Positions 11,151 through 32,266 are shown, numbered from the stretch's first letter. The stretch is 43,259 nucleotides of DNA from an uncultured bacterium (GCA_964400815.1 CAYNWJ010000002.1:1-43259); one strand, 5' to 3'. Notes: generated from the sequence alone by a model not told the origin. Program-made: numbers and translations.

Positions 11151-11217
11151 CCCGGGCCGGCTGACGGTGACACCCAAAGGCCGGACACCATACCACCATG
11201 AAAAGGGAGTGTCATAC

Positions 11218-13182: not shown

Positions 13183-13199
13183 CCTGCATCACAGGTGAT

Positions 13200-17075: not shown

Positions 17076-18455
17076 TCAATTCCCCGACAGGTAAGCAGCG
17101 GCCATGCCCGCCAATGCCCTGACGCCGTATGACAACGCGTCCTCGTCCGCGCGGAAAAGAGGCGAATGGACGGGAGCCACCTCGTTATCTGGCACGCCTT
17201 TCGGCCGCACTCCGAGAAAGATGTACAGCGACGGCACTTTTTCCGCGAAAAAGGCGAAATCCTCAGCGCCGGTGTGCACCCGGGACACCACCAGGTTCTC
17301 CTCACCCACCACATGCCCGAGCACGGGCAGCATGCCTGCGGTCAGTTCGGGGTCGTTGTAGGTGACGGGGACGCCCACACCCACGGACACATCGGCTTTC
17401 GCCCCCGCGCTTTCTGCGATGTTTACGGCGGTGGTTTCGATACGCTTGTGAATGTCCCACCGCATGTCGGGATCGAGGGTGCGGATGGTGCCGACCATTC
17501 TGACCTCGTCGGGAATGATATTGCTCCGTATGCCCCCGTTGATCATGCCCACGGTTATCACCGACGGCGCCTGAATGGCATCGAGCTGCCTGCTCACGAT
17601 GGTCTGAAGGCCAAGAATGATCTGCGCCGAGACCACCACGGGGTCCACGCCCATCCACGGATATGCGCCGTGTGTCTGGCTTCCGGTTACGGTGATGCGG
17701 AGACCGTCGGCGCTCGCCATGGCGCCTTCCGGCCTATAGCCGATGACACCCGCCTCATAGTCGGTGCTCACATGCAGCCCGAACATCGCACCGGGAGCGG
17801 GGTCTTCCAGCGCACCCTCCTCGATCATGAGATCGGCTCCGCCGCGCTCTCCCGAGGGAGCACCTTCTTCGGCGGGCTGAAAAAAGAACACCACGGTACA
17901 GGGGAGACGCTCGCGAACAGCGGCAAGAACCCGGGCCACGCCCATGAGTATCGATGTGTGACAGTCGTGCCCGCATGCATGCATGACCCCCACGTCGGCG
18001 CCGTTGTATTCAGCGCGTACGGTGGAAGCGAAGGGAAGCCCGGTCTGCTCGGTCACCGGCAGGGCGTCCATGTCGGCCCTGAGCCCCACGACAGGCCCCG
18101 GCCCGCCACCCCTGAGAACGCCGACCACTCCCGTGTGAGCAATACCCGTACGGACCTCCATGCCAAGGGATTCCAGGTGATCGGCCGCCATGCCCGCCGT
18201 TCTGAATTCGCGGTTCGAGAGCTCGGGATGGGCATGAATATCCCGGCGCCATTCGATGACACTCGCCTCGACCTTCGCCGCCTCTTCGTCGATGACCCGC
18301 AAAAGGTCTTCCACCGTATCCTGCGCCGCGGACGGCGACGGATGAAGCATAGTCATCAACCCGAAAAATACGGCAGAAACCAGCATCGATGCGGCGCGGT
18401 AGTCGCGCCTGACCGATGCCGTGACGGGTGTGGGAACACGGGCATAGGGAGCCAT
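17076..18455 (-). CDS. Secreted M20D-family amidohydrolase (aminoacylase / hippurate-hydrolase-like peptidase)
   Basis: Track ORF trimmed to ATG 18455, preceded by AAAGGAGGAAAAAAC. Signal-peptide-like N-terminus ..ASMLVSAVFFGLMTMLHPSPSAA. Motifs HAHPELSNRE, GLRADMDALP, MHACGHDCH. Confidence 0.85.
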   Translation of the reverse strand: MAPYARVPTPVTASVRRDYRAASMLVSAVFFGLMTMLHPSPSAAQDTVEDLLRVIDEEAAKVEASVIEWRRDIHAHPELSNREFRTAGMAADHLESLGMEVRTGIAHTGVVGVLRGGGPGPVVGLRADMDALPVTEQTGLPFASTVRAEYNGADVGVMHACGHDCHTSILMGVARVLAAVRERLPCTVVFFFQPAEEGAPSGERGGADLMIEEGALEDPAPGAMFGLHVSTDYEAGVIGYRPEGAMASADGLRITVTGSQTHGAYPWMGVDPVVVSAQIILGLQTIVSRQLDAIQAPSVITVGMINGGIRSNIIPDEVRMVGTIRTLDPDMRWDIHKRIETTAVNIAESAGAKADVSVGVGVPVTYNDPELTAGMLPVLGHVVGEENLVVSRVHTGAEDFAFFAEKVPSLYIFLGVRPKGVPDNEVAPVHSPLFRADEDALSYGVRALAGMAAAYLSGN

Positions 18456-18584
18456 GTTTTTTCCTCCTTTATTTCGTGGCTGATTCATTTCATTCAAGTA
18501 TACTGAATCCATCCAGCGAGGCAAACTTAATTGGAAGATCGCATGCAAAATGACCGGCAGCCGTTCACTCCCGGCAATTACTCC

Positions 18585-18613
18585 TTGACATTTATCGCCT
18601 CATGTGTGATATT
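18585..18613 (+). promoter_or_regulatory. Candidate sigma70 promoter with extended -10 (TTGACA-17 nt-TGtGATATT) for the GT2 operon
   Basis: TTGACA at 18585-18590, TG at 18605-18606, GATATT at 18608-18613. It would give a leader of about 120 nt before ATG 18740. Confidence 0.45.
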
Positions 18614-18739
18614 TTCGGCATTAAGACATTCAATATCAAATGTTTGTGATATTGCCACCTGCCTCGGGAGCTGACACCGCCCCTTCCCGCGATGAACGGG
18701 CGGAAGGACGCGGCCACTCACCGGAGAAAGCCGGTTTCG

Positions 18740-19678
18740 ATGGAAACGAACACACCAGTATATTCCGTACTGATTCCCATATACCGTTCCGCCACGATGA
18801 TCGGGGAGCTGTATTCACGAATCATCGCGGTGATGGATACGGTGGGAGAGCCGTTCGAGATCGTTTTCGTGGACGATTGCAGTCCGGATGACAGCTGGCG
18901 GGTCCTGGAGGAAATCCATGAGAACGACCCCCGTGTCAAGCTGATCCAGCTCATGAAAAACGCCGGTCAGCCCAGGGCGCTCATGTGCGGCTTCGAACAT
19001 GTCAGGGGCGATTACGTCATCACCATGGACGACGACCTCCAGCATCCACCCGAAGAGATACCGAAACTCATCGGGGAAATGAACGCCCATCCGGGGCTCG
19101 ACGCCGTCATCGGGATTCCGATTGAGAAGAAACACCACCCCCTGCGAAACATGATCTCCGAGGCCTACAACATCGTCAACTCATACATCTTCCAAAAGAG
19201 CCGGTCGCTGAAAATGGGCCCGTTCCGGATCATAAGACGGCAGGTCACCGGGCAACTGATTCTTCAGAACACCTATAACCCCATCATAGGCACCATGCTT
19301 CTGAGCATAACCGTGAACATGACGAATGTCCCCGTGGAGCACCACGAGCGCAAGGAAGGGTCATCCACCTACACCCCCGGCCGCATCGTCAAGGCGGCGC
19401 TCGATTCGATTCTCCAGAACACCACCCTGCCGCTGAAATTCGTCAGCACATTCGGCATGACCGTATCATCGATCAGCATCATTTACGGGTTCTATAATAT
19501 CTTCAAAAAGCTCTTCAGAGGCATCAGCACGCCCGGTTGGGCGAGCCTCATGGTGGTCAATCTCTTTCTGTTCGGCGTCATACTCTTTTCCCTCGGCATC
19601 ATCGGGGAATACCTCATTCGCATCATTCAGTCGACACATCAGATACCCCGGTACACGGTCCGGCAGAAAAAAATATAA
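18740..19678 (+). CDS. GT2-family polyprenyl-phosphate glycosyltransferase (ArnC/GtrB/DPM1-like)
   Basis: Track ORF trimmed to ATG 18740. N-terminal YSVLIPIYRSA...VFVDDCSPDDS...ITMDDDLQHPP (GT-A fold with DxD). Two C-terminal TM helices (FVSTFGMTVSSISIIYGFY, WASLMVVNLFLFGVILFSLGIIGEY) are characteristic of the polyprenyl-P sugar synthase subgroup. Confidence 0.85.
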   Translation: METNTPVYSVLIPIYRSATMIGELYSRIIAVMDTVGEPFEIVFVDDCSPDDSWRVLEEIHENDPRVKLIQLMKNAGQPRALMCGFEHVRGDYVITMDDDLQHPPEEIPKLIGEMNAHPGLDAVIGIPIEKKHHPLRNMISEAYNIVNSYIFQKSRSLKMGPFRIIRRQVTGQLILQNTYNPIIGTMLLSITVNMTNVPVEHHERKEGSSTYTPGRIVKAALDSILQNTTLPLKFVSTFGMTVSSISIIYGFYNIFKKLFRGISTPGWASLMVVNLFLFGVILFSLGIIGEYLIRIIQSTHQIPRYTVRQKKI

Positions 19679-20874
19679 TGCAGAAAAAGATCATGATACT
19701 CGGCGCCGGTGTTTTTCAGCTTCCGGCAATACACAAGGCCCGTGAAATGGGCCTGGTCACCGTCGTGTGCGGCGGAAACGCGGACGAACCGGGCCTGAAA
19801 ATCGCCGATGTTCCCTGCCACGTGAGCACAACCGACATGGAAGGCGTGCTGGCCGTGGCGCGGCGGGAAAGCATCGACGGCGTCATGACGATCGCGTCGG
19901 AAATATCGGTCTCCACAGTCACGTTTGTGGCTGAAAAGCTGGGACTGCCCGGATATCGGCATGAAACGGCGCGGAATATCATGAACAAGTTCAGGCTGCG
20001 TGAAATCCTCGCGGCCCATGATATTCCCGTACCCGCTTTCGGTATCGCGAGACGGGCCGGCGAATCGCGGGAGATCGCGGAACGGGTGGGATTCCCCGTC
20101 ATCCTCAAGCCGGTCGAATCATCGGGAAGCAGGGGTGTGTCGGTGCTCCAAAGCGCCGATGGAATCGAGGCGGCATGGCGGAGAGGCGCCGATCTTTCAC
20201 AGGGTGAACGGAGCGTGGTGATAGAACGATACATCGCTGGCCGCGAGGTCGGCGGAGAATGCATCGTGCGGAACCGCAAACTCGCCTTCATGGAAATTAC
20301 CAACAAGTATATCAACAGGTGGCATGTGCCGCTGGGCCATTCGGCGCCGTCCACGCTTGACCGCGGGGACATTGCGGCGACGGAAGAGCTTGTTTCCCGG
20401 TGCATCGAGGTTTTCGACATTGATGAAGGCCCGCTCAACCTGGATGTCATGATCACGGCGGACGGCCCGGTCGTTCTCGAGCTCGGCGCCCGCCTCGGAG
20501 GCAACTGCCTGCCCCGGATAATGGAGCTCGGCACCGGGGTCGATACGGAGAAGGCCGCCATTGCGATGGCGCTCGGGGACCCGCCCGCGCTTGACCGAAG
20601 CCGCAGAGACTGTGTCGGCGTGCGGATATTGGGCTCGGAAACCGACGGCGTTCTCGGCCGTGGAGCGGACGCCGGTCTTTTTCACGAACATCTCGAATCG
20701 GACATCATCGAAGCCGTCATCGACCTGAAGCCGGGCGAACCCATCAAAAAATTCGACCAGGGCAGCCATCGGTTCGGCCATGTCATTCTGCGCGGCTCGT
20801 CGATAGAATGCCTCGAACGGGATTTTACAACAATCGACAGGATATGCTCGGAATGGGTGCTGGACATGCCATGA
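19678..20874 (+). CDS. ATP-grasp domain carboxylate-amine ligase
   Basis: Track ORF trimmed to ATG 19678, which overlaps the GT2 stop (TAATG). MQKKIMILGAGVFQLPAIHKA is a pre-ATP-grasp Rossmann-like segment. ATP-grasp core: NKFRLREIL..IPVP, FPVILKPVESSGSRGV, IERYIAGREVGGE, LELGARLGGN. Confidence 0.8.
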   Translation: MQKKIMILGAGVFQLPAIHKAREMGLVTVVCGGNADEPGLKIADVPCHVSTTDMEGVLAVARRESIDGVMTIASEISVSTVTFVAEKLGLPGYRHETARNIMNKFRLREILAAHDIPVPAFGIARRAGESREIAERVGFPVILKPVESSGSRGVSVLQSADGIEAAWRRGADLSQGERSVVIERYIAGREVGGECIVRNRKLAFMEITNKYINRWHVPLGHSAPSTLDRGDIAATEELVSRCIEVFDIDEGPLNLDVMITADGPVVLELGARLGGNCLPRIMELGTGVDTEKAAIAMALGDPPALDRSRRDCVGVRILGSETDGVLGRGADAGLFHEHLESDIIEAVIDLKPGEPIKKFDQGSHRFGHVILRGSSIECLERDFTTIDRICSEWVLDMP

Positions 20875-21419
20875 AACAGTCGGACGGTACGGTCGCCATT
20901 CGTCCCCTGGAGCTCGGGGACCTGGACCGGGTTCTTTCGTGGATCAGGGATCCCCTCATCATGCGGCGCATCGGCCTGCATGGGGAGCGAACGATGGAAT
21001 CGCAAGAGCGCTGGTTCCGGGGGATGGTGGATGACGAACACCGCCAGGTCTGGGCCATCGAGCTGGTAGAATCGAATCGCCACATCGGGAACATATCGCT
21101 CTATGACATCGATCGCCTGCACGCGCATGCCGGGATAGCCATATTCATCGGGGATAGGGAGCTTCGGGGGGCGGGTTACGGGAAACGGGCCTTGAGGCTC
21201 ATGCTCGATCATGTCTTCCAAACCATGGGGCTCCACCGCGTCTATTGCAAGACCGAGGCGTCGTTCGAGGGGACAATCGATTTCTACGAGTCTCTCGGGT
21301 TCACCCGCGAGGGGACGCTTCGTGAGCATGAACACTTCGATGGCGCTTATACGGACAAGGTCGTGTTCGGCCTGCTCGACAGGGAGTTCATCCCGGACAG
21401 CCGGCCGGACCGGACGTGA
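20871..21419 (+). CDS. GNAT N-acetyltransferase (RimJ/RimL-PseH-like)
   Basis: Track ORF trimmed to ATG 20871, which overlaps the ATP-grasp stop (ATGA). IRPLELGDLDRVLSWIRDP...ERWF resembles amino-sugar N-acetyltransferases of the PseH type. Acetyl-CoA loop RGAGYGKRAL. Confidence 0.8.
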   Translation: MKQSDGTVAIRPLELGDLDRVLSWIRDPLIMRRIGLHGERTMESQERWFRGMVDDEHRQVWAIELVESNRHIGNISLYDIDRLHAHAGIAIFIGDRELRGAGYGKRALRLMLDHVFQTMGLHRVYCKTEASFEGTIDFYESLGFTREGTLREHEHFDGAYTDKVVFGLLDREFIPDSRPDRT

Positions 21420-21466
21420 AACGGGCGGCACGGGTAAAAGCTAACTGTCAGCTCAAGGATACATAC

Positions 21467-23266
21467 ATGGCGGGAAAATCGAAAAAACGGCGAAAGAAAA
21501 ACGAACCGGCCGCGCCACCACGGCCGAAGAACCCCCTTTCGACGAAAATCCAGAGCGTCATGACACGCTTTCCGCCGGTCGTTGTCGCGTTGTTCATCAT
21601 CGGCATCCTCTTTCTTGTTCAGGGGATATTCTTCGTTTCCTCCTTCCAGACGAATGATGACATCGGGATGCTGTTCATCGCATCGGGTAACGGCTCCAGC
21701 ATCGAACCGGACGAGCATCTGAGATACACCCACGTGTTCATAGGCTTTGTTCTCAAATATCTCTATTCGCAGACGCAGGCAATTCCCTGGTACGGATTGT
21801 ACCAGTATTTCCTCCATTTCATCTCCATGGTCGCCCTCGCATACGCCGTCATCGACAAGGATGGATCGGCAAGGAGACTCCTGTTCCTCCTGCTCTATCT
21901 CTTCTTCGTCGAATTGTTCCTTCTCAACAACATGCAATACACCATCACCGCCTGTATCGCGGCGCAGAGCGGTGTTTTCCTGTTCTTCAACGGCTTGTCG
22001 AAAGACACCCGGGGCAGGTGGGTCTCATATGCCGCCGCCATCTTCCTGCTGATTGCGTCCGCTCTCGTGCGGACGAACGGGTTTTTCCTGATGATGCTCA
22101 TATCGCTGCCGATCCTCTCGATAAGCGTCTGGAGGAACCGTAACGACCGCGGAATGATTCGCGATTTCATCGGGTTCTGGTTCATCGTCTCCATCGCCGT
22201 TTTCGGGCTCAGGACCTTTGAAAGACAGTATTACAGAAGCGACCCGGCGTGGGCCGAGTTTTTCACCTTCAGCAAATTGAAATCGCGGTTCATCGACTAC
22301 GACCACATTGAGTACAACGAGGAAACGAAGCACATATTCGATGATGCGGGATGGAGCAGGAACGACCTGTTCCTCATGCGGTCGTGGTTCCATGCCGACG
22401 AGGACCTGTTCAGTGTCGATAAGCTCGAATCAATTTCATCTCAATTCCCCTCATTCAAGACATATCTCTCCATCGGCGAGGTGTTCGGCACTGTCACGGA
22501 CAAAATCCTGGACCAGTGGTTCATGGTGCTTCTCGCGGTGTTCTTCATGCTCTATCTGCGGGGAGGGGAAAAAGGTAATCGCGCATATATCCTCGCCACG
22601 CTTGCCCTGATATTCGCCGTATTTCTCTACCTGCTGGTGGCGAGGCAGCTGCCGAACCGTGTAATTCAGCCGGTCCTCTCCTTTCTCCTGGTGGCGGCGA
22701 TGTATTTCAGCTCACGCGAGCTTGAACAGTTTTCACCGGTGAGAAAGATCGTCAATACCGCCATGATAGGGGGAATCTGCATCGCCCTCCTGTTCTTTTT
22801 GAGCGAACAACACCGTGAAAGCGCGGACAAGATCGCGGCGAACCGGCAGTTCAAGAACACGGTCGGGGAACTGGACCCCTCGCCGGACGATCTCTATGTT
22901 ATCTGGGGCTCGGTCCCGTGGGAAAGCATTCTCCCCTTCGACACCCTCGATTTCATGCGGGACTGGAAGCTGGTCCTGCTCGGCACGACCCTCCGGACAC
23001 CCATAACGAAGGCCCGTCTGGCGGAATTCGGCATCGACAACATCTACCGCGCCCTGTACGAACGGCCCAATGTGTTCATCGTGACAAGGAACCGGCGGTA
23101 CCTGTATTTCTATTCCCAATATGTCCTTGAGCATTTCGGTGAGAACCTGCAATTCCAATATGTCTTCAGAAGCCCCGAATTCTATGTCACACAGGTCTAT
23201 CCCGACGCCGATTCCCAGGAGGAAGATCCCCCGGATGATATCTATCTCAACGATCCCTACAATTAG
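21467..23266 (+). CDS. Large polytopic membrane protein, GT-C-fold-like glycosyltransferase candidate (family unrecognised)
   Basis: Track ORF trimmed to ATG 21467 (AAGGAT 7 nt upstream). Polybasic N-terminus MAGKSKKRRKKNEP. At least 9 hydrophobic helices by eye. An acidic NDD motif follows TM1 (SSFQTNDDIGM), as in the first extracytoplasmic loop of GT-C enzymes. About 170-aa soluble C-terminal domain. Confidence 0.6.
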   Translation: MAGKSKKRRKKNEPAAPPRPKNPLSTKIQSVMTRFPPVVVALFIIGILFLVQGIFFVSSFQTNDDIGMLFIASGNGSSIEPDEHLRYTHVFIGFVLKYLYSQTQAIPWYGLYQYFLHFISMVALAYAVIDKDGSARRLLFLLLYLFFVELFLLNNMQYTITACIAAQSGVFLFFNGLSKDTRGRWVSYAAAIFLLIASALVRTNGFFLMMLISLPILSISVWRNRNDRGMIRDFIGFWFIVSIAVFGLRTFERQYYRSDPAWAEFFTFSKLKSRFIDYDHIEYNEETKHIFDDAGWSRNDLFLMRSWFHADEDLFSVDKLESISSQFPSFKTYLSIGEVFGTVTDKILDQWFMVLLAVFFMLYLRGGEKGNRAYILATLALIFAVFLYLLVARQLPNRVIQPVLSFLLVAAMYFSSRELEQFSPVRKIVNTAMIGGICIALLFFLSEQHRESADKIAANRQFKNTVGELDPSPDDLYVIWGSVPWESILPFDTLDFMRDWKLVLLGTTLRTPITKARLAEFGIDNIYRALYERPNVFIVTRNRRYLYFYSQYVLEHFGENLQFQYVFRSPEFYVTQVYPDADSQEEDPPDDIYLNDPYN

Positions 23267-23308
23267 GCCGTCATCCCGGAAACGGGGACATCCCACGGAA
23301 CATCATCC

Positions 23309-24319
23309 ATGAAAAAACATACCGTCGTCATCGTGAAATCAGCGATAACCATCGGCGTGTTCGTGTTTCTTTTCACACGCCTGGAGGCGACAGAGATATT
23401 CGCCAGAATGGCGCGCATGGACATGGGACTGTTCGCCGTGTCCATCGGCCTCATCATGCTGAAGAACCTGGGCGCCGGATACCGGAACCGTATCCTTCTG
23501 CGGCACATCGGCTCCAATGTGGGCCTGGCCGCCCTTGTCCGCCTGTATTTCATCGGTGGTTTCTTCAATCTCTTCCTGCCCACGGCGGTCGGAGGCGACA
23601 TCGCCCGCGCTTTTTATCTCTACCGTTACAGCGGAGGGAACGAATCCACGGTAAGCACGATCATCATGGAGCGCGTGCTTGGGATCCTCGCCATGATGTG
23701 CCTCTCCTTCACCTCGGTTCTTCTGATCCACGCACTCATGCCGGGTCTCCTCGCATCGCGGCTGATTCATGTCATTACGGTGCTTTTCGGCTGTGCCCTT
23801 GCGGCCTCGGCGCTCTTCTTCCACGGCGCGGCTGAACGCTTCGTGGAGCGGATGATGCCACACAGACTCTCGAACCGCATGGCTCCGGTCATCGCTGTCG
23901 TGCGCTCGTTTCTCGGCTTCCGCAGGGGAGCGCGGGCGCTTGTGTCCGCCTTTCTCGTTTCCCTGACCATACAGGCGATCATCATTGCATCCACATGGGT
24001 CATTGCATTGTCCATCGGTGACGACACTCCGCTCATCGTCTTTCTCATGCTGCTTCCCATCATCTGGCTGGTCAGCATGATCCCCGTGAGCATCAACGGT
24101 ATCGGATTGCGCGAAGGGGCGTTCGTCTTTTTTTTCGGCACGGTGGGCATGAGCGGTGAAACAGCGCTCGCCATCAGTCTCATCTGGTTCGCCCAGATGA
24201 TTGTCATGGGGGTGATGGGAGCGGGGGTGTTCCTGTTCGAGGGGGAATCCATCACCGGGATCAAACAGTGGGGAACGGAGCAATTCGACACGACCGAACG
24301 CGGACCGCGCACCACATGA
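23309..24319 (+). CDS. UPF0104 / lysyl-phosphatidylglycerol-synthase transmembrane-region (MprF flippase-like) family protein
   Basis: 336-aa polytopic ORF. Family signature YFIGGFFNLFLPTAVGGDIARAFYLY plus the late motif MIPVSINGIGLREGAFVFFF. Confidence 0.8.
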   Translation: MKKHTVVIVKSAITIGVFVFLFTRLEATEIFARMARMDMGLFAVSIGLIMLKNLGAGYRNRILLRHIGSNVGLAALVRLYFIGGFFNLFLPTAVGGDIARAFYLYRYSGGNESTVSTIIMERVLGILAMMCLSFTSVLLIHALMPGLLASRLIHVITVLFGCALAASALFFHGAAERFVERMMPHRLSNRMAPVIAVVRSFLGFRRGARALVSAFLVSLTIQAIIIASTWVIALSIGDDTPLIVFLMLLPIIWLVSMIPVSINGIGLREGAFVFFFGTVGMSGETALAISLIWFAQMIVMGVMGAGVFLFEGESITGIKQWGTEQFDTTERGPRTT

Positions 24320-24344
24320 AACGTCGGCCGGTCCCACATCCCGG

Positions 24345-25202
24345 TCAGCCGGGACTCTTTCTGCCGGTGAAAATGAAGCCCGAGGCGATGTTCTCCGCCA
24401 TCGGGTGATGTCTGAGGAAAATATCGAGGAATTTCAGGGGAAACGTGGCAACCATGAATATCATGTGAAGCGGGAAATACAGCCGCCTGCTGCCGAAGGA
24501 ACACAGGATCGCCGCCCATTCCTGGAGCACCCAGAGCAGACCGGAGGTGGGTCCCGAGGCGACATGAAGCCCGGTCTCCTCGAAGTTTCTCATGAGACGC
24601 CGCAATCCGGCTGATGTTCTGCGGGAATAGTCGTGGGGCGATGCATGAAATCCCTGGATGAACGGCATCATGACATAGAGAACGCCGCCGGGTTTGAGGA
24701 TACGGTGCATTTCGGCCACGACGGTTTCGGGTTCCGGCACATGCTCGAGCGCGGCCACCGACAGGACCACATCCACGCTCTCGTCCCGGATCGGGAGAAA
24801 ATCGATCGTACAGGCGAGATCGACATTGTCATAGGGGAAGATGTCGATGTTCGAAACGAACGGCGAGATATCTGTGTTCCCGCTGCCGAGATTCACCGCG
24901 GCCACGTCTCCTCCCGCGACATGCTCCTCGAGAAACGGGCGCAGAACGCTCCGGTTGCTGTTTACGGGGCCGATGATGAAATTCAGAAACGAATAGAGGG
25001 CGGGATGCCGTTTGAGGAGATACTTGAGACGGTCGAAAGGGTCGGCGATATCGGACTCGTCGAAGGCGGCGAAGCAGAGCGACCGGCCCCTGCGCCCGAA
25101 GCGCGATCCGCACGCCCTGCATCGGGCCCCGCCGCCATCGGAAGAGAGACCGTTCGAGCATTCAGGACAGACGAGAATGTCGATGGGCACTGGCCTGCTC
25201 AT
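24345..25202 (-). CDS. Class I SAM-dependent methyltransferase with N-terminal Trm112-like zinc ribbon
   Basis: Track ORF trimmed to ATG 25202 (GGAG 9 nt upstream). CPECSNGL...RCRACGSRF forms a four-Cys ribbon. VNLGSGN (SAM motif I), VDVVLSVAALEHVPEPE, ILKPGGVLYVMMPF. Confidence 0.8.
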   Translation of the reverse strand: MSRPVPIDILVCPECSNGLSSDGGGARCRACGSRFGRRGRSLCFAAFDESDIADPFDRLKYLLKRHPALYSFLNFIIGPVNSNRSVLRPFLEEHVAGGDVAAVNLGSGNTDISPFVSNIDIFPYDNVDLACTIDFLPIRDESVDVVLSVAALEHVPEPETVVAEMHRILKPGGVLYVMMPFIQGFHASPHDYSRRTSAGLRRLMRNFEETGLHVASGPTSGLLWVLQEWAAILCSFGSRRLYFPLHMIFMVATFPLKFLDIFLRHHPMAENIASGFIFTGRKSPG

Positions 25203-25258
25203 GATGCGGGATCTCCGGCATTGAATACGTGTAATCGTTGTGGAGGCATAATCGCCGC

Positions 25259-26221
25259 ATGACACGCAGACGACTCAAGCTCATTCTTCAGATCGTCATA
25301 CCCGTCATCATCCTGGGATATCTCTTTCTCACCCTGGATGCCGGGGCAATCGGAGCCCATCTCGCCAGGACCGGGCCCCTGCCCTTCATCTCGGCATTCG
25401 TGCTGCTCTGCCTGCGGAACGTGGTCGGCGCATTCCGGAGCGCCATTCTCCTCAAGTCGCGCGGCCTGGACTTTTCGACAGGCGAACTGACCCGGCACTA
25501 CTTCATCGGCTTCTTCTTCAATCTCTTCCTTCCGGAAGTGGTGGGCCGGGACATTGCGCGCGGCTATTTTCTCTACCGGTCGAGCAGCGGCGACGCCAGA
25601 ACGGTCGGCTCGATCGTCGCAGAACGGCTCATCGGCACCGCGGCGCTTCTGATCATGTCGGTCGCCGCCGTGCTCCATGCGGCGGTCACCGGCGCGGCGG
25701 TGTTCGAAAACAATGTCATCACCGCCGTATTCGTGCTCTTTGCCGCAGCGACCCTGGCAATTCCCCTCGTCTTCAACGCCTGGACGGAATCGCTGCTGGA
25801 GCGTCTGGCCCCGGCGGGTAAACGGACCCTTTCCGCCAGGACCGCCGGTTTCATCCGGGATGTCGTCTCATATCACCGGTCACTGTCGTCGGTCGCCTGG
25901 AGCTTCATCGTCTCAATCGTATTCCAGCTGATCGGTGTTGCGGCGGCCTTCCTCATCGCCCGTTCCCTGGGAGACGACACGCCGTTCCTCTATTTCTTCA
26001 TTCTCCTGCCGGTCATCTGGGTGCTGGGAATGCTGCCCGTATCGGTCGGCGGCCTCGGCGTTCGCGAGGGATCGTTCGTCGTGCTCTTCGGGGCCGTCGG
26101 CATGGCGCGGGAAATGGCGATGGCCGTCTCGATCCTCTGGTTTGTCCAGAATATCGGCCTCGGACTGGTCGGCGCCGTCCTCTTCATCCTCGACAGGGAT
26201 CCTCCCGCCGCCGCTTCCTGA
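25259..26221 (+). CDS. Second UPF0104 / MprF-flippase-like membrane protein (paralog of 23309..24319)
   Basis: Track ORF trimmed to ATG 25259 (GGAGG 12 nt upstream). Same signature as the first copy: YFIGFFFNLFLPEVVGRDIARGYFLY and MLPVSVGGLGVREGSFVVLF. Confidence 0.8.
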   Translation: MTRRRLKLILQIVIPVIILGYLFLTLDAGAIGAHLARTGPLPFISAFVLLCLRNVVGAFRSAILLKSRGLDFSTGELTRHYFIGFFFNLFLPEVVGRDIARGYFLYRSSSGDARTVGSIVAERLIGTAALLIMSVAAVLHAAVTGAAVFENNVITAVFVLFAAATLAIPLVFNAWTESLLERLAPAGKRTLSARTAGFIRDVVSYHRSLSSVAWSFIVSIVFQLIGVAAAFLIARSLGDDTPFLYFFILLPVIWVLGMLPVSVGGLGVREGSFVVLFGAVGMAREMAMAVSILWFVQNIGLGLVGAVLFILDRDPPAAAS

Positions 26222-26229
26222 AACGAATT

Positions 26230-27354
26230 TCAGTCATAAAACCGCTCCAGGGCAGACACCACATGCCCGATCTGCTCGTCGCGGAGGCCGGGATAGAAGG
26301 GGAGGCTCACCACTTCCCCGCCCATACGCTCGGCCACGGGGCACTGGCCGTCATGCGCGCCGAGATTGTCCCGGTACCACGAATTGAGATGAACGGCGCG
26401 GTAATTCACGGCCACACCGATCTCATGCTCCTGCAGATGCGCGAGCAGACGGTCACGGTCGCGTGCGGCGGCGCGAATCACGAAGAGATGATGGGCGTGC
26501 TTCACATCAGGCGGCGCCGGAACGGGGGTGACGGGGACACCGGCCTTATCGAGCTCGCCGAGATAACGGGCGTGCAGACGGTCACGTTCCACGCGCGCCT
26601 GTTCCACAGTCTCGAGCTGCGGAAGCAGAAGGGCTGCCTGGATGTCGTTCATGTTGAACTTGTAGCCCAGTTCGATCATGTCGTAATGGCGGAAATGCTG
26701 ATAGCGTTTCGAGGCGTCCTTGTCGAGCCCGTGAAGCCTGAGAACGCGGAGACTGTCTGCGAGATCGCCGTCATTGGTGACGACCGCCCCGCCCTCGCCG
26801 CAGGTCATGTTCTTGGTGGCATAGAAGCTGAATACGGCCGCGTCACCCGCCTGTCCCGGACGTATGCCGTCACGCTCTCCCTCCACACAGTGGGCGGCGT
26901 CTTCCAGGAGGAACAGGCCGTGCTCGTCCGCGAAGGCCCTGAACCGTTTCATGTCCACCATGCCGCCATAGAGATGCACGGGAATGATCGCGCGTGTTTT
27001 TTGGGTGATCTTTTCCTGAGCGTCATCGAGATCGAGGAAGCCGGTGTCCGGCTCCACATCGGCGAACACCGGCGTGGCCCCCGTGTGCAGGACGGCGTTG
27101 GCGGTCGCCACGAATGTCATGGCCGGGACGATGACCTCGTCGCCCGGTCCGATACCCTTCGCGGCGAGGCACAGGAACAGTCCAGCCGTGCAGGATGTGA
27201 GCCCCACCGCGTGGTCCACACCGAGCCATTCGGCGAAAGACCGCTCGAAACGTCCGGTGACCGGCCCGGTCGTGAGAAACACCGAATCGAGCACGTTCCG
27301 CACTTCGTCGGCATGCCGTTCGCCCAGTTGATGCCTGTAGAATTCCACCTTCAT
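26230..27354 (-). CDS. DegT/DnrJ/EryC1/StrS-family PLP-dependent sugar aminotransferase (ArnB/PseC-like)
   Basis: Track ORF trimmed to ATG 27354 (AGAGAGGA upstream). Motifs GDEVIVPAMTFVATANAV, IIPVHLYG, and FSFYATKNMTCGEGGAV (PLP lysine motif). Confidence 0.9.
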   Translation of the reverse strand: MKVEFYRHQLGERHADEVRNVLDSVFLTTGPVTGRFERSFAEWLGVDHAVGLTSCTAGLFLCLAAKGIGPGDEVIVPAMTFVATANAVLHTGATPVFADVEPDTGFLDLDDAQEKITQKTRAIIPVHLYGGMVDMKRFRAFADEHGLFLLEDAAHCVEGERDGIRPGQAGDAAVFSFYATKNMTCGEGGAVVTNDGDLADSLRVLRLHGLDKDASKRYQHFRHYDMIELGYKFNMNDIQAALLLPQLETVEQARVERDRLHARYLGELDKAGVPVTPVPAPPDVKHAHHLFVIRAAARDRDRLLAHLQEHEIGVAVNYRAVHLNSWYRDNLGAHDGQCPVAERMGGEVVSLPFYPGLRDEQIGHVVSALERFYD

Positions 27355-27382
27355 CGATCGAGTCCTCTCTTTCTTGCTCCCG

Positions 27383-29191
27383 TCAACGGCCCGCGAGCAT
27401 GCGTCGCATGACACCGGTCTGCAGATCGCGGTTCTTGTAATACCCGGGGATGTTCTTATCATACAGCGCCGCCGCCTCTCTCGCATCTTCGTTCATGTCC
27501 AGAGCGTGGTAGATGCGAAAGATACTGAACAGGAGCACGGGATTCTTCACATCGGCGAAATGGGAAACGGGCGGGATCGATACGGGTGGCTCACGGTCCA
27601 CGTCCACCTTCGAAAACACCACGCCTATCCGGTCGAACATGACGAGCCGCCATTCAGGAGAATCGAGGAACGCCGCCGCCACCTGCCAGTATTTCGAGTG
27701 ATGTATGAGCGCATTACGGAAGGGATAGCACCCGTTCAGGTCATGCAGCCCCTCGACACCCGGCCGCTGTCTGAAGGTCATGTAATCGTTCCAGACGCCC
27801 GTCGCCTCGTAGGGACGGTGCCGTGGGTCGATGAAAACCTTGTAGTCGGGATAGAGGGAAAAGATCATGTACCCCCCGGTCAGGTAGTCGTTGAAAAACG
27901 GGCCGGGAAGATCGTGTTCCCTGATATAGTCGGTCTCGTGGACCGGCGCCTGCTCGTCGAGCCGGGAACCGAACCAGTATTTGTAGGTGTTTACGGTCAA
28001 TGTATTGTGAACGCAGACGAAGCTGATCAGGAGCACCGCCGCGCCCGAGAGGGCGGCCATGCGGTCTTCGAAATCCCGTTCGTCGATGACGGTGACGAGC
28101 CGGACGACAGTGAACAGCCAAATGGCGGGGAAATACAGGGAGGCCCGGGCCATGCTCATGGCGAAGAAAAAGAACAGGACCGTGGCGGCGAGGAGGGGGA
28201 TATCGACGAAACGCCTCTTTGTGTATGCCCTGAAAAAGAGCCAGAGCGCCGAAATCTCGAGGAGCACCAGCGCCCACGCCGTGTTGGTGCGGCGAAAAAC
28301 GTAGACCCGCGGAAAGAGGTATTCCCATCTGTTGAAATAGGCGGTGAGCACCTCGAACTGCCCCTTCTCACCCGTGATCATTCTGGCCACCGTTTCCAGC
28401 GGATAGGCCGGGCCGAATGGATTGACGAATGTCGCGAGCCCCGCGAGACCGACGGAAACGGAAAAAGCGATCAGCACGTCCCTGTTCATGGGATTCTTTT
28501 TGAACACGAAGGCGTTCACGATCTCCAGGCCGAGCATGAACACGAGGAAGAACATGCCGATGATGAACGCCCCGTGCGTGTTGACCCAGATGAGGAAAAG
28601 AGGCGGCAGCGCGAAGAACGCACGTTTCTCCGTTTCCCTGCCGATGAAATACAAGAATACGGCAACCGCGAAGAAGACCAGCGTGAATTGTTCGGGCTTG
28701 ATGAATATCGCGGTGGGATTGATCGAGACCAGAAACAGAAGGATGGCAAGGACATATGCCATGGAGAGGGGCCTTCCTCTCCTGCGCAGCAGGTAAAGAA
28801 AGAGCAGGACGGGGACTGCCAGGCACAGCAGTTGGAAAACACTCAGCGCGGCGACCCCACCGGCTGAATGGATGAGATACAGCATCGAGCTGCCGATCCA
28901 GGTGACATATTTCCAGCTTCCGTCCACGGGCGTCCAGGAATAGGCGGTCTGGTCGATGGTCCAGGTGGTCTCGTTCACGAAATGCTCGCCGAACTTGATA
29001 TGGAACCAGATATCATAGTCACCGGCATGATTCGGATAGTAGAGGACCGTCACCGCCGCGACCAGAATGAACGCGATCCCGATGACGATCATGGAAGTCG
29101 AACAGCGTTTCGCCCCATCCATGATCGCCGCGGTCACACCCGGTCCGCTCCTTCCGGTGCCGCTGCGCCGTTTCTTCTTCCGGCTTGTCAT
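27383..29191 (-). CDS. Large polytopic membrane protein, GT-C-fold-like glycosyltransferase candidate (ArnT-position gene)
   Basis: 602-aa ORF with ATG 29191. Polybasic N-terminus MTSRKKKRRSG. An acidic DYD motif follows TM1 (NHAGDYDIWFHIKFGEHF). More than 10 hydrophobic helices by eye. About 190-aa C-terminal soluble domain. It lies between the SDR and aminotransferase genes with gaps of 63 and 28 nt. Confidence 0.6.
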   Translation of the reverse strand: MTSRKKKRRSGTGRSGPGVTAAIMDGAKRCSTSMIVIGIAFILVAAVTVLYYPNHAGDYDIWFHIKFGEHFVNETTWTIDQTAYSWTPVDGSWKYVTWIGSSMLYLIHSAGGVAALSVFQLLCLAVPVLLFLYLLRRRGRPLSMAYVLAILLFLVSINPTAIFIKPEQFTLVFFAVAVFLYFIGRETEKRAFFALPPLFLIWVNTHGAFIIGMFFLVFMLGLEIVNAFVFKKNPMNRDVLIAFSVSVGLAGLATFVNPFGPAYPLETVARMITGEKGQFEVLTAYFNRWEYLFPRVYVFRRTNTAWALVLLEISALWLFFRAYTKRRFVDIPLLAATVLFFFFAMSMARASLYFPAIWLFTVVRLVTVIDERDFEDRMAALSGAAVLLISFVCVHNTLTVNTYKYWFGSRLDEQAPVHETDYIREHDLPGPFFNDYLTGGYMIFSLYPDYKVFIDPRHRPYEATGVWNDYMTFRQRPGVEGLHDLNGCYPFRNALIHHSKYWQVAAAFLDSPEWRLVMFDRIGVVFSKVDVDREPPVSIPPVSHFADVKNPVLLFSIFRIYHALDMNEDAREAAALYDKNIPGYYKNRDLQTGVMRRMLAGR

Positions 29192-29254
29192 GCGCCGCCT
29201 GTCTCCCGTGGTGCATTTCGTTGCGACCGCTCCCGGCGGATCACCGGGGCACGA

Positions 29255-30217
29255 TCAGTTCTTGTCTTGCAGTTTATTGAAAACCCTGATGTTGTAATAG
29301 ACATCGTTGTCGATGTCCTTGAAATGCTCGTAATTGTCCACCAGGTTCTTCACGATGTCGTCGATATCGTCGATGGCCCTGAAATTCATTATCTTTCTCG
29401 CCTTTTCGGTATCGACCTTGTAATTGCGGTAGTCTTCCATGTATTTGATGTTCAGCTTCACATCCACGTCCATGTGCTTTTTGAGGCCGTCCTTGACATA
29501 GTCGGCGACCTCCCCCACCGTATAATTCCCCGAGGAGATGTTGAAAACACCGGAAATTTCGTGGGCGGTCTCCACGGCGCGGACATAGGCGCTCACGACA
29601 TCCTTGACCGATACGATCGGCCGCCAGATGCGTGGGTTGTTTACGGTGATCACACCCTTGACCATGGCCCACTTGAACATGGTGTTGATGATCAGGTCGA
29701 GACGCATGCGGGGGCTGTATCCGCTCACCGTTCCCTTCCTGAAACATATGACGGAAAAAGAATCGTCGGCCAGGTGCATGCACCCGAATTCACCCTGAAG
29801 TTTCGAGATCCCGTAGGGATAATTCGATATTGTCGGGGACTCTTCGTCATACAGTTCGTTGATGGTATAGCCGTAAACGGAGCATGAACCGCCGTAAATG
29901 AAGCGCCTGACCCCCGCCTTCTTCGAAATGAACGCCAGGTATGCCGGCGCGGCCGCGTTGCTCACATAGTTCATCGAAGGGGAATATTCCGCCATGGGAT
30001 CGTTGGAAAGGCCGGCAAGAAAGATGACCGTGTCATATCCCGCTATCTCTTCCTCCGTGACGTCCATGACATCCTTACGCATCACATTCACGTCACCGGG
30101 CAGTTTGTTGCCGAACCACAAGAGATCGACCACATCGACCGTATACGAACGCTCCGTCAACCGGGGAACCAGGCTCGACCCGATGTATCCCGCACCGCCG
30201 GCTATGAGAATTTTCAT
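29255..30217 (-). CDS. Extended-SDR NAD-dependent sugar-nucleotide epimerase/dehydratase family protein
   Basis: Track ORF trimmed to ATG 30217 (AAGGGGGAAATC upstream). MKILIAGGAGYIGS (Rossmann), GGSCSVYG, YGISK (YxxxK). Visibly more AT-rich than its neighbours. Confidence 0.85.
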   Translation of the reverse strand: MKILIAGGAGYIGSSLVPRLTERSYTVDVVDLLWFGNKLPGDVNVMRKDVMDVTEEEIAGYDTVIFLAGLSNDPMAEYSPSMNYVSNAAAPAYLAFISKKAGVRRFIYGGSCSVYGYTINELYDEESPTISNYPYGISKLQGEFGCMHLADDSFSVICFRKGTVSGYSPRMRLDLIINTMFKWAMVKGVITVNNPRIWRPIVSVKDVVSAYVRAVETAHEISGVFNISSGNYTVGEVADYVKDGLKKHMDVDVKLNIKYMEDYRNYKVDTEKARKIMNFRAIDDIDDIVKNLVDNYEHFKDIDNDVYYNIRVFNKLQDKN

Positions 30218-30269
30218 GATTTCCCCCTTCATGTAAATCGAAATACCATCTCTGATTATCAACAAACCC

Positions 30270-30299
30270 AATATAACATTCGATTTATAAACCACGCAA
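30270..30299 (-). promoter_or_regulatory. Candidate promoter with extended -10 (TTGCGT-18 nt incl. TGt-TATATT) for the SDR / GT-C-like / aminotransferase operon
   Basis: The minus strand reads TTGCGTggtttataaatcgaaTGtTATATTggg. The -10 is at 30270-30275, the TG at 30277-30278, the -35 at 30294-30299. It is flanked by an 8-bp inverted repeat CAACAAAC/GTTTGTTG (30260-30267 / 30303-30310). Confidence 0.4.
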
Positions 30300-30475: not shown

Positions 30476-31012
30476 TCAGCCCCTGCGGAACACCAGGTTC
30501 TCCTCCTCATAGAGCCAGTTGCCCGGGTCCGAAAGATACGACATCAGATTCTCCACAAGGTTGTAGTGGATGTTCTCCTCCTTCGCAAGGAAATCGAATA
30601 TCCCGCGCACCTCGTCTTCCTCGGCGTTGTGGGCCGCCGACGAATAGGTATCGAAGCTCTCCTTCTCCTTCTCGAGGGCCTTTTCCAGCGTGTCGCGGAC
30701 AGATGCCGATTCCGCCTCAAAATCCGCGTCCTTCACGCTGCCGTGGGGAAACGCCTCATTCAGGCGCTCACGGGCTCCGGGGCCCGACTCCGTCTGGATA
30801 TCATCGACCGAAAACGATTCCCGCGCCGCCTTGAGCAGCTTCTCCATCATGGCCTTGTGCTTCTTTTCGTCCTCGACCAGACCGGAAAGAACGGTTTTCG
30901 TCCCCTCGGTCTTCGCCTTGTCGAGACACGCGGTATAGAATTGGAGACTCTCGTTCTCCCGTCCGATGGCATATTCGATGATGCCGATGGTCTTTTCGCT
31001 GGCGAGTTTCAT
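30476..31012 (-). CDS. Ferritin-like di-iron protein (rubrerythrin-family domain, no rubredoxin domain)
   Basis: 178-aa ORF with GGGAGG upstream of ATG 31012. Two ExxH di-iron half-sites (EDEKKH, EENIH), each preceded by a Glu-containing helix (EYAIGRENES, LEKEKES). Confidence 0.75.
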   Translation of the reverse strand: MKLASEKTIGIIEYAIGRENESLQFYTACLDKAKTEGTKTVLSGLVEDEKKHKAMMEKLLKAARESFSVDDIQTESGPGARERLNEAFPHGSVKDADFEAESASVRDTLEKALEKEKESFDTYSSAAHNAEEDEVRGIFDFLAKEENIHYNLVENLMSYLSDPGNWLYEEENLVFRRG

Positions 31013-31071: not shown

Positions 31072-31080
31072 AATATAACA
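31072..31080 (-). promoter_or_regulatory. Candidate extended -10 promoter element (TGtTATATT) for the rubrerythrin-like gene
   Basis: The minus strand reads tcATGTTATATTGat, 60 nt upstream of ATG 31012. The same 11-mer occurs at 30269-30279 in the other promoter. No convincing -35. Confidence 0.35.
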
Positions 31081-31173
31081 TGAACAGCGATGTTGTGCCA
31101 TCATTTTCCCGAAAAGCGGACACCCCTCCATGCGAAACTCCCGTGCGCGGGGAGTTACCGCCCTTTCACATGC

Positions 31174-31202
31174 TTGCATATCGGAAGGTATGGTATTATA
31201 CT
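31174..31202 (+). promoter_or_regulatory. Candidate sigma70 promoter (TTGCAT-17 nt-TATACT) for the atypical SDR gene
   Basis: TTGCAT at 31174-31179, a 17-nt spacer, and TATACT at 31197-31202, about 40 nt upstream of ATG 31245. Confidence 0.4.
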
Positions 31203-31244
31203 GGAGCAACAACGGCATACGCGCCGGATAAAAGGATGGATCGC

Positions 31245-32186
31245 ATGCATGTGGCGGTGTTTGGCGGCACTGGTTTCATAGGAAGGCACGTGACGCGGGA
31301 GCTCATCGAACGGGGACACACACCCGTGCTCCTCGTCCGTCCCGGCAGTGAAGAAAAAATCACTTTTGACGGGAAAACACGGACTGTCACCGGTACCATC
31401 GCCGACAGGCATGCGGTTGAACGCACCCTCGAGGGAACCGGGGCGGTGGTCTATGCAATCGGCATCATACGACAGGACAGAGCGCGGGGGATCACCTACG
31501 AGGCCCTGCATGTGGACGGTGTCGGGACAACGGTTAACTCATGCCTCGAACAGGGCGTGAAACGCCTGCTCCTCGTCAGCGCGAATGGTGTCGGGCCTTC
31601 GGGAACGGTCTACGAGGGCTCCAAGTTCAGGGGTGAAGAGATCGTACGCTCATCGGGGCTCGACTGGACCATCCTCAGACCCTCCGTGGTCTTCGGCGAT
31701 CCCCGCGGCGCGATGGAGCTGGCGTCACAGTTGAAGCGGGACATGGTTTCCATCCCAGCCCCCCTTCCCCTGTTCCACCGGGGAATCCTGCCGTGGCGGG
31801 GACCGTCATTCAAGCTTGCTCCCGTTCATGTGCGCGATCTGGCGCGGATCATCGCAACAGCGATCGAGACGGGCGAATTGACGGGACGGACGGCAGGAGT
31901 CTGCGGGCCGGATGAACTCGACTGGGAAACCGTCGCGCGCACGGTGGCGGAGGCATCCGGCAAACGCAAATCCGGCGTGCCCGTTCCACTGTGGGCGGTT
32001 AAGGCGGCCGCCGCTCTCCTCGATCGTTTCCGCTTCTTTCCGGTAACCCGTGAACAGCTCGAAATGCTCGGCGGAGGCAACACCTGCGATTCCCGCGAAC
32101 TGTTCGAACGATTCGGCATAGACCCCATACCCTTCACCGTCGAATCCCTTTCCTACCTGGGAAAAACCGGCGGCGGGAAACACTGA
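31245..32186 (+). CDS. Atypical SDR, NAD(P)H-binding NmrA/NDUFA9-like protein
   Basis: Track ORF trimmed to ATG 31245 (AAAGGA upstream; alternative ATG 31236). MHVAVFGGTGFIGRHVTRELIERGH is a Rossmann motif. Also LLLVSANGV and WTILRPSVVFG. Confidence 0.75.
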   Translation: MHVAVFGGTGFIGRHVTRELIERGHTPVLLVRPGSEEKITFDGKTRTVTGTIADRHAVERTLEGTGAVVYAIGIIRQDRARGITYEALHVDGVGTTVNSCLEQGVKRLLLVSANGVGPSGTVYEGSKFRGEEIVRSSGLDWTILRPSVVFGDPRGAMELASQLKRDMVSIPAPLPLFHRGILPWRGPSFKLAPVHVRDLARIIATAIETGELTGRTAGVCGPDELDWETVARTVAEASGKRKSGVPVPLWAVKAAAALLDRFRFFPVTREQLEMLGGGNTCDSRELFERFGIDPIPFTVESLSYLGKTGGGKH

Positions 32187-32266
32187 CACTCCCGCAGTTC
32201 CTGCAATCAGGGCCGGAATGGATCATGGTGAAGCAACGAAGCTCCCAAACACGGGAACAACCCGGC

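Follow-up and report, generated by a model that had tools for sequence, protein, structure and literature searches.

The GtrA/B/C, CsbB/GtcA/YfhO and pentofuranose GT136 systems each combine a polyprenyl-phosphate-sugar synthase with a dedicated flippase and a GT-C glycosyltransferase carrying a proposed catalytic Asp near its first transmembrane helix (TM1; PMC11127046). [quoted passage not shown] In Clostridioides difficile, the stand-alone MprF-like protein HexF has been proposed to be an amino-glycolipid flippase, a role that is itself unproven (PMC10128005), and the acylated amino sugars N-acetylglycyl- and acyl-alanyl-Qui4N (4-amino-4-deoxyquinovose) occur in bacterial glycans (PMC3210612). 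Here we analyze a cluster of 11 open reading frames (ORFs) at positions 18,585-30,299 of a 43,259-nucleotide stretch from an uncultured bacterium (GCA_964400815.1 CAYNWJ010000002.1:1-43259, the window hereafter), which an earlier note on this DNA had described as an Arn-like polyprenyl-phosphate amino-sugar modification locus. We consider it fairly probable that the cluster encodes an extracytoplasmic glycosylation system of the three-component type, delivering an N-acylated 4-amino sugar and extended by enzymes that tailor the donor. The host of the 18.6-30.3 kb cluster is probably a Latescibacterota lineage.

Gene identities were taken from an ORF listing and from Pfam and NCBIfam hidden Markov model (HMM) scans of the locus proteins, which together account for every one of the 11 ORFs. 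Folds were predicted with AlphaFold and compared with the PDB using Foldseek, and PDB chains were also searched by sequence and by profile. The genes named in the earlier note (a GT2, an ATP-grasp enzyme, a GNAT, two large membrane proteins, two PF03706 proteins, a methyltransferase, a DegT aminotransferase and an SDR) were all found in place.

Carrier loading and two large membrane proteins

The plus-strand gene at 18692..19678 (PF00535, 109.6 bits), for which ATG 18740 is the likely true start, encodes a GT2 of the ArnC/GtrB/PgfS type. Residues 24-325 of its 328 align to the solved structures of ArnC (9bhc/8vxh, 134.7 bits) and GtrB (5eke, 132 bits), and the alignment spans the DDxS, D-x-D and ER..G.S.Y motifs as well as both C-terminal transmembrane helices. 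By this full-length alignment the protein is a member of the polyprenyl-phosphate glycosyltransferase family, in agreement with the earlier proposal. An assignment as an ArnC equivalog was rejected: the score against the NCBIfam ArnC model (NF007986) is 145.5 bits, far under the cut-off of 529, and GtrB and PgfS score about equally, PgfS being the second-best NCBIfam match (137.7 bits, likewise far under its equivalog cut-off).

Two polytopic proteins, MP1 (21467..23266, plus strand; 599-616 aa, GTG 21416 being a possible alternative start) and MP2 (27383..29191, minus strand; 602 aa), have no Pfam match even at E<=10, and single-sequence and profile searches of PDB chains found nothing meaningful for either. 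The GT-C families tested were PMT, PMT_2, GT87, YfhO, STT3, DUF2723 and Arabinose_trans. The AlphaFold model of MP2, built on a 76-sequence alignment, reached a pLDDT of 94.7 and a pTM of 0.93. Foldseek places only GT-C enzymes among its best 20 PDB matches, the next ones having a probability <0.15; these 20 include AglB (3wak; E 2e-5, TM-score 0.51), yeast and human STT3, DPY19 (E 9e-5), ArnT (E 2.7e-4, TM-score 0.35), AftA, PglB, AftD and EmbC/A/B. The model thus strongly supports a GT-C fold for MP2, followed by a C-terminal periplasmic alpha/beta domain. Residues 434-457 of this domain form a near-invariant F-N-D-Y-x-x-G-G-Y...Y-K-V-F-I-D-P-R motif, which loosely recalls the WWDYG and DK motifs of oligosaccharyltransferases. 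The model of MP1 was built on seven sequences and is of moderate confidence (pLDDT 72.3); its top seven Foldseek matches are all GT-C enzymes (ArnT 5f15, E 2.5e-4, then AftA, STT3, PglB, STT3B, PglB again and AftD), which moderately supports the same fold. The GT-C character suspected in the earlier note is therefore predicted for both proteins, if less firmly for MP1.

MP1 and MP2 share a common plan, with a basic (Lys/Arg-rich) cytoplasmic N-terminus, TM1 and an invariant acidic motif. In MP2, D58-x-D60 stands directly after TM1 and is invariant among the 76 sequences; in MP1, N80-D81-D82 lies just past TM1 and is invariant in the seven-sequence alignment, D81 and D82 being at least 90% conserved in 78 diverse sequences. 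A proposed catalytic Asp occupies the same post-TM1 position in several solved GT-C structures (PMC11127046). Since profile-profile comparison finds no credible relationship between the two proteins (probabilities of 12.6% and 35.9%, over a non-colinear segment), we take them to be unrelated in sequence. The earlier description of two unrelated GT-C-like proteins of about 600 aa holds as an observation; as a departure from any described pathway it does not, the Pgf operon being a precedent.

Both families extend well beyond this locus. A word-indexed search returned only seven homologues of MP1, giving the misleading impression of a tiny family, which an exhaustive HMMER search corrected to 6971 cluster representatives at E<=1e-3 (2688 at E<=1e-30). 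Nearly all of these match over their full length, and the family is spread over Chloroflexota, Actinomycetota, Bacteroidota, Planctomycetota, Bacillota and candidate phyla. Among 78 members sampled there was no match to a known GT-C family of Pfam; the Pfam matches obtained were four isolated, single-member ones to unrelated or unknown-function models (TgpA_N, DUF6056, DUF6541 and DUF2070). Homologues of MP2 number more than 200 and all carry the label 'hypothetical'; they come from Latescibacterota, Nitrospirota, Thermodesulfovibrionales, Desulfobacterota and Smithella. MP1 and MP2 thus appear to represent two GT-C-fold families devoid of any annotation and apparently undescribed.

Paired PF03706 proteins and the conserved gene set

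Two plus-strand genes encode proteins of the PF03706 family (cut-off 33.4 bits), which we call FlipA (23309..24319; 147.5 bits, 336 aa) and FlipB (25259..26221, alternative start 25238; 113 bits, ~320 aa). FlipA is also above the cut-off of TIGR00374 (61.3 bits), and the two paralogues are 38% identical. Both consist of the transmembrane domain only and score 19 bits against the MprF model NF033480 (cut-off 600); as they have no aminoacyl-phosphatidylglycerol synthase domain, they are not MprF. Both match the HpnL model weakly. Their family membership makes them candidate flippases of a lipid-linked sugar. The gaps between genes, where measured, are ~8-65 bp, too short for a small gene of the ArnE/F or GtrA type, although ORFs nested within or opposite larger genes were not searched. 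The earlier observation that two PF03706 proteins are found where ArnE/F would be expected is hence correct, while their role as flippases keeps the status of a prediction.

Nine of the genes of the locus are co-localized in the JGI contigs L001-3 (58-75% identity) and, at 45-65% identity, in a Latescibacterota metagenome-assembled genome (MAG; L004/L007, the same place). These sister loci represent two other Latescibacterota lineages, so that three versions of the locus can be compared. The string GT2-ATP-grasp-GNAT-MP1-FlipA is invariant in all three, FlipA following MP1 in each of L001-L004 and L007. MP2-DegT forms a second block and the position of FlipB floats, its orthologue in L001 being 66% identical; both PF03706 genes are thereby co-conserved with the GT2 and GT-C genes. 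Block order and orientation differ among the window, L001 and L004. Because the blocks have been reordered and yet kept together, we argue that co-localization is under selection, and the recurrence of the gene set at 45-75% identity, with shuffled modules and on independent contigs, indicates that the clustering is not due to chance.

A related operon is present in an Armatimonadota MAG (L016:3306-10327), where genes for DegT, an RmlB-like protein, an RmlA-like protein, an ArnC-like GT2, a GNAT, an ATP-grasp enzyme resembling L-amino-acid ligases and an MP1-like protein form one string. The co-localization in other genomes on which the earlier note had made its reading depend is thus observed in two further Latescibacterota lineages, with this operon as a relative. 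In MAGs of Gemmataceae, Cytophagales and other Bacteroidota, DegT and/or ArnC-like GT2 genes lie within 10 kb of an MP1-like gene, and MP2-family genes elsewhere adjoin genes for DegT, GNAT, hexapeptide acetyltransferase, WbqC or GT2. One apparent association proved spurious: the ATP-grasp gene adjacent to MP1-like genes in Oscillospiraceae MAGs (L014 and L015) is purD ending a purine operon, a coincidence.

Several further features of these neighborhoods were recorded. The Armatimonadota string comes directly after genes for cytochrome bd. It shows no PF03706 gene, but the contig ends inside the MP1-like gene. In Smithella and other Desulfobacterota MAGs (L006:8846-14876 and L028:8001-12709), two MP2 paralogues flank a GNAT of the Acetyltransf_3 family, with a DegT gene immediately upstream of the group in L006 and a DedA/VTT-domain gene (a family of candidate undecaprenyl-phosphate recyclers) 2-6 kb away. 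A second Latescibacterota lineage (L026:8001-14495) carries an MP2-like gene and, after it, genes for a short GT2 of 245 aa, a WbqC-family protein, a BKACE enzyme, a hexapeptide acyltransferase and DegT, so that here too the MP2 family is joined to an N-acyl amino-sugar cassette.

Donor chemistry, proposed pathway and alternatives

Four enzymes of the locus, in which no signal peptide or transmembrane segment was apparent when the translations were inspected by eye, could make and tailor the sugar. The DegT-family, pyridoxal phosphate-dependent sugar aminotransferase (26230..27354, minus strand; PF01041, 389 bits) has the ArnB structures 8sng (263 bits) and 1mdo as its best solved relatives. 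The ArnB and PseC equivalog models score equally (315.8 and 313.2 bits) and both below cut-off (423.5 for PseC), suggesting a C4 aminotransferase of unassigned specificity. The ATP-grasp amide ligase (19678..20874, plus strand; ATP-grasp_3/4 domains) is of the L-amino-acid-ligase-like, cytoplasmic kind: it has a sub-threshold Pfam match to LAL_C2, and its best solved match is the uncharacterized structural-genomics protein 4dim (127 bits), with the L-amino-acid ligases 3vot and 4wd3 coming next. The GNAT N-acetyltransferase (20871..21419, plus strand; Acetyltransf_3, PF13302, 73.6 bits) has PseH and SpeG as nearest named models, both sub-threshold (57.9 bits against a PseH cut-off of 93.1). 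Coupling of these two genes to GT2, as claimed in the earlier note, is evident from the overlap of the GT2 stop with the ATP-grasp start (TAATG, 19676-19680) and of the ATP-grasp stop with the GNAT start (ATGA, 20871-20874). A pseudaminic acid pathway was considered and rejected, PseC and PseH being under their cut-offs and the locus containing no PseB, PseG, PseI or PseF domains.

The fourth enzyme, an extended SDR (29255..30217; PF01370, 100 bits), is the first gene in the minus-strand transcription order SDR, MP2, DegT. It has YxxxK and the sequence 'GSCSVYG' where 4,6-dehydratases and decarboxylases have T-D/S-E, and is therefore an SDR of epimerase or oxidase character. Among solved structures it matches 6vo6 best (95.6 bits), which we take to be Cj1427, a GDP-heptose C4-oxidase (Huddleston et al. 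2020, cited in PMC9978623). The enzyme, a sugar-nucleotide C4-oxidase, is described in PMC9978623. The SDRs of the sister loci (L001:6413-7438 and L004:12990-14015) are RmlB-like 4,6-dehydratases ('STSEVYG'; 309-311 bits on TIGR01181, the dTDP-glucose 4,6-dehydratase model) and are placed after DegT, whereas the window SDR, only ~19-20% identical to them, is placed before MP2. By these comparisons, the window SDR is a non-orthologous substitute for the dehydratase of the sister loci; the G+C content of its stretch is 0.55, against about 0.60-0.62 mid-locus. The swap would imply either that an rmlB gene is located elsewhere in the genome or that the sugar retains its 6-OH.

In the pathway that we infer, from the order of tailoring and the identity of the sugar to the flippase role and the acceptors, the SDR would first produce an NDP-4-keto sugar in the cytoplasm. 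For the sister loci and the Armatimonadota operon, which have an RmlB-like 4,6-dehydratase in this role, a 4-keto-6-deoxyhexose is implied, and the RmlA/RmlB-like genes of these relatives point to a 4-amino-4,6-dideoxyhexose as the product of the second step, in which DegT would convert the keto sugar into a 4-amino sugar. The ATP-grasp enzyme would then amidate the 4-amine with an amino acid or another carboxylate, a step which, being ATP-dependent, should precede flipping, and the GNAT would acetylate the newly introduced free alpha-amine, yielding an N-(N-acetyl-aminoacyl)-4-amino-4(,6-di)deoxyhexose. Such a two-step N-acyl chain is the simplest chemistry given one aminotransferase, two amide-forming enzymes and no uronate-forming dehydrogenase, and the acyl group on the 4-amino sugar is probably N-acetyl-aminoacyl; the donor chemistry in all its specifics is nonetheless tentative and, in our judgment, has somewhat less than an even chance of being right. 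In the fifth step, GT2 would load the sugar onto polyprenyl phosphate; the two PF03706 paralogues would flip the lipid-linked sugar, and MP1 and MP2 would finally attach it, at the periplasmic side of the membrane, to one or two acceptors in the envelope (glycan, protein or lipid). Two GT-C enzymes might act on two acceptors or at two positions, which appears to be the case for PgfM1 and PgfM2 of S. mutans (PMC12041528). The earlier picture of a lipid-linked, N-acylated or aminoacylated and possibly methylated amino sugar that is flipped and transferred is supported in outline, while the flipping and the identity of the sugar are predictions; methylation, as discussed below, is not part of the core.

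Several observations weigh against this pathway. We know of no PF03706 protein that has been demonstrated to flip polyprenyl-phosphate sugars. No GT2-PF03706 fusion occurs among the 120 best FlipA homologues, and the contexts of three distant PF03706 genes are heterogeneous, comprising a GT4 with methyltransferases in one case, no sugar-related genes in another and a GT2 with a deacetylase and a sulfotransferase in the third. Within 10 kb, an ArnC-like GT2 or DegT gene is present at only 6 of 15 MP1-family loci from GTDB species genomes. The fold of MP1 derives from a seven-sequence model of moderate confidence, with TM-scores of 0.33-0.39, and the best structural neighbors of MP2 are oligosaccharyltransferases, which use diphosphate-linked donors. 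The acid/base residues expected of a dehydratase are missing from the window SDR, which is also unrelated to the sister SDRs, and the 4-keto substrate of this organism is therefore hard to predict. Finally, PseH, the nearest named relative of the GNAT, acetylates the sugar amine directly; if the GNAT did likewise, the ATP-grasp enzyme would be left without an obvious substrate.

An alternative is that two independent systems with different donors have been juxtaposed, module A consisting of GT2, ATP-grasp, GNAT, MP1 and FlipA, and module B of SDR, MP2, DegT and FlipB. The modules do shift in order and orientation among the window, L001 and L004, and each family also occurs without the other: in the absence of MP1, the MP2 family has its own DegT/GNAT (L006 and L028) or its own GT2 (L026), and the MP1-family gene of L016, which is not accompanied by MP2, has its own DegT, RmlA and RmlB. 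All three Latescibacterota versions, however, contain a single polyprenyl-phosphate GT2 and a single aminotransferase, so that the modules need each other, A having no aminotransferase and B no GT2, and they remain within about 12 kb despite rearrangement. We accordingly rate juxtaposition as rather improbable.

A pathway to an amino-glycolipid, as in HexSDF or HpnI/K/L, would have a membrane lipid glycosylated by GT2 as its end product, the PF03706 proteins would bring this glycolipid to the outer leaflet, and the functions of MP1 and MP2 would lie outside glycosyl transfer. It would agree with the linkage of PF03706-only proteins to operons with a glycosyltransferase and a deacetylase (HexF; PMC10128005), with the weak HpnL matches of FlipA and FlipB, and with PF03706 homologues elsewhere that adjoin GT4, GT2, deacetylase and methyltransferase genes. 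Yet the GT2 is ArnC/GtrB-like over its full length, whereas HexS is annotated as being of the monogalactosyldiacylglycerol-synthase type, the locus contains no deacetylase, and two GT-C-fold proteins with conserved Asp motifs in the first extracytoplasmic loop have been kept in the cluster; this pathway is very unlikely. About equally unlikely, in our view, is the proposal that MP2 is an oligosaccharyltransferase-like enzyme using a polyprenyl-diphosphate-linked glycan, with the locus forming part of a protein glycosylation system whose initiating enzyme is elsewhere: the best structural matches of MP2 are AglB and STT3 (TM-score 0.51, against 0.35 for ArnT) and its periplasmic domain has the near-invariant N-D-Y-x-x-G-G-Y ... 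K-V-F-I-D-P-R, but the locus has no phosphoglycosyltransferase, Wzx/ABC flippase or further cytoplasmic glycosyltransferases, the GT2 conserved along with MP2 is a synthase of monophosphate-linked sugars, profile searches fail to link MP2 to STT3, PglB or AglB sequences, and the Foldseek E-values for enzymes using phosphate-linked donors (DPY19, 9e-5; ArnT, 2.7e-4) are near those of the oligosaccharyltransferases.

The three-component pathway can also be put in a bolder form, in which paired stand-alone PF03706 proteins would constitute a new class of polyprenyl-phosphate-sugar flippases, MP1 (~7,000 clusters at 50% identity) and MP2 would found new GT-C families, and an aminoacylated 4-amino-6-deoxyhexose would be delivered to two different envelope acceptors. 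Taken as a whole, this version seems to us unlikely.

Surroundings of the locus and comparison with known systems

Upstream of the GT2 operon, a sigma-70-like promoter candidate (18585..18613, plus strand; TTGACA-17-GATATT with an extended TG) agrees with the consensus at 10 of 12 positions, better than any other site in the region, and a terminator-like hairpin (24339..24354, plus strand) may close the GT2-to-FlipA transcription unit; both are pattern matches only. The remaining gene of the cluster, at 24345..25202 on the minus strand (or 24345..25265), encodes a class I S-adenosylmethionine-dependent methyltransferase (Methyltransf_11, 50 bits) with an N-terminal CPEC...CRAC motif. The zinc ribbon that the earlier note had attributed to it is seen only as this CxxC...CxxC pattern with sub-threshold Pfam matches. 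No homologue of the methyltransferase was found in the sister loci (L001-L004, L007), and methylation is therefore not a core feature. Its C-terminal segment (~residues 266-284 of the long ORF) is hydrophobic, suggesting membrane association, and Methyltransf_11/23 genes also occur near distant PF03706 genes (L022) and near an MP2-like gene (L027).

On the left, the locus is bordered by an M20/M25/M40 amidohydrolase gene (17076-18548, minus strand), divergent from GT2 and 144 bp apart from it, whose product carries an apparent signal peptide (...HPSPSAA/QD). A periplasmic N-acyl-amino-acid amidohydrolase beside a locus whose predicted product is an N-acyl-aminoacyl sugar would parallel ArnD-type unmasking; the M20 gene is absent from the sister loci. 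The amidohydrolase and the methyltransferase were both considered as core parts and, having no counterpart in L001-L004 or L007, were demoted to a neighboring and an accessory gene. Just upstream, a block (10347-16553) that probably acts in polysaccharide degradation or remodelling contains the gene for a PIG-L-family de-N-acetylase and those for two further proteins, one a right-handed beta-helix protein (686 aa) and the other secreted and heparinase II/III-like (1117 aa). On the right, a rubrerythrin/ferritin-like gene (30476-31012, minus strand) with a strong hairpin downstream is followed by a pterin/folate cluster (31080-34463, plus strand) encoding an NmrA-like NAD(P)-binding protein, a short-chain reductase, HPPK and GTP cyclohydrolase I.

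The first 9000 positions of the window have a G+C content of 0.47-0.55, against 0.58-0.66 in the remainder, and two ORFs in this low-G+C region have no Pfam match (986 aa, 1928-4888; 427 aa, 8883-10166; both minus strand). [quoted passage not shown] In L001, a gene for a large secreted protein (with a faint FlgD_ig match) adjoins that of MP2. A seryl- or glycyl-aminosugar tethers T9SS cargo in Bacteroidota (PMC7468200), and by analogy the aminoacyl sugar could be a protein-anchoring 'linking sugar', an idea that we regard as a long shot; the T9SS-type genes (PorV-like, CHU_C cargo) lie 10-14 kb upstream of the locus.

Should the proposed pathway be correct, periplasmic glycosyl transfer from a lipid-phosphate donor would be assigned to two families of large membrane proteins so far placed in neither Pfam nor CAZy, and the widespread stand-alone MprF-flippase-like proteins would gain a concrete substrate class. 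It would also mean that an aminoacyl/acetyl-tailored amino sugar can travel via a polyprenyl-phosphate carrier instead of cytoplasmic repeat-unit assembly, and would offer a first handle on envelope decoration in uncultured Latescibacterota.

Among described systems, Arn (PmrHFIJKLM) shows the same order of steps, from SDR through a 4-aminotransferase and N-acylation to GT2 transfer onto undecaprenyl phosphate, flipping and a GT-C enzyme, and ArnC and ArnB are the best solved relatives of the GT2 and DegT. In contrast to ArnA, which combines a formyltransferase with a UDP-glucuronic acid oxidative decarboxylase, the locus has no Formyl_trans domain, and its SDR has no T-S-E motif and no ArnA match. 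None of the 11 ORFs has ArnD or ArnE/F domains, MP1 and MP2 are outside the ArnT families PF02366/PF13231 (GT83) and resemble ArnT (5ezm/5f15) in fold only, and all scores on the NCBIfam Arn equivalog models are far under cut-off. N-acylation would be effected by ATP-grasp and GNAT enzymes instead of a formyltransferase, and there are two transferases. Judged by its gene content, the locus is thus not an Arn pathway and nothing links it to lipid A; of the Arn-like logic originally proposed, the sequence of steps is retained.

In O-antigens, sugars such as Qui4N-GlyAc and Qui3N-AlaAc are incorporated from the nucleotide donor by cytoplasmic glycosyltransferases, whereas the sugar of this locus would go via a polyprenyl-phosphate carrier to GT-C enzymes. 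The donor chemistry predicted here is that of these O-antigen sugars, from 4,6-dehydratase to aminotransferase, aminoacylation and N-acetylation; it is the occurrence of such substituents that is documented (PMC3210612). The HexSDF system of C. difficile and HpnI/K/L likewise associate a stand-alone MprF-flippase-domain protein with a glycosyltransferase and an enzyme that unmasks or modifies an amine (PMC10128005); there, however, the flipped lipid is the end product, the glycosyltransferase is of another type and no GT-C enzyme takes part.

The nearest precedent for the set of one GT2, an SDR and two GT-C enzymes is Pgf, as HexF is for a stand-alone MprF-like candidate flippase of an amino-sugar lipid. 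PgfM1 and PgfM2 are YfhO-family paralogues, whereas MP1 and MP2 are not YfhO proteins and are mutually unrelated; genes for an aminotransferase, an ATP-grasp enzyme, a GNAT or a PF03706 protein are absent from Pgf, which comes from a Gram-positive host. With the three-component systems the locus shares a GT2 that aligns end to end with ArnC/GtrB and has the C-terminal transmembrane helices, and GT-C-fold proteins with an acidic motif in the first extracytoplasmic loop (with moderate confidence for MP1). The logic of these systems is well established and no principle is overturned here. The locus differs from them in that its flippase candidates are two PF03706 proteins and not members of GtrA/SMR or MATE, in that its GT-C families are unannotated, and in that it co-encodes enzymes for donor synthesis and tailoring; the conserved PF03706 pair in place of GtrA, SMR or MATE, and the ATP-grasp/GNAT tailoring coupled to a polyprenyl-phosphate GT2, both appear to be undescribed.

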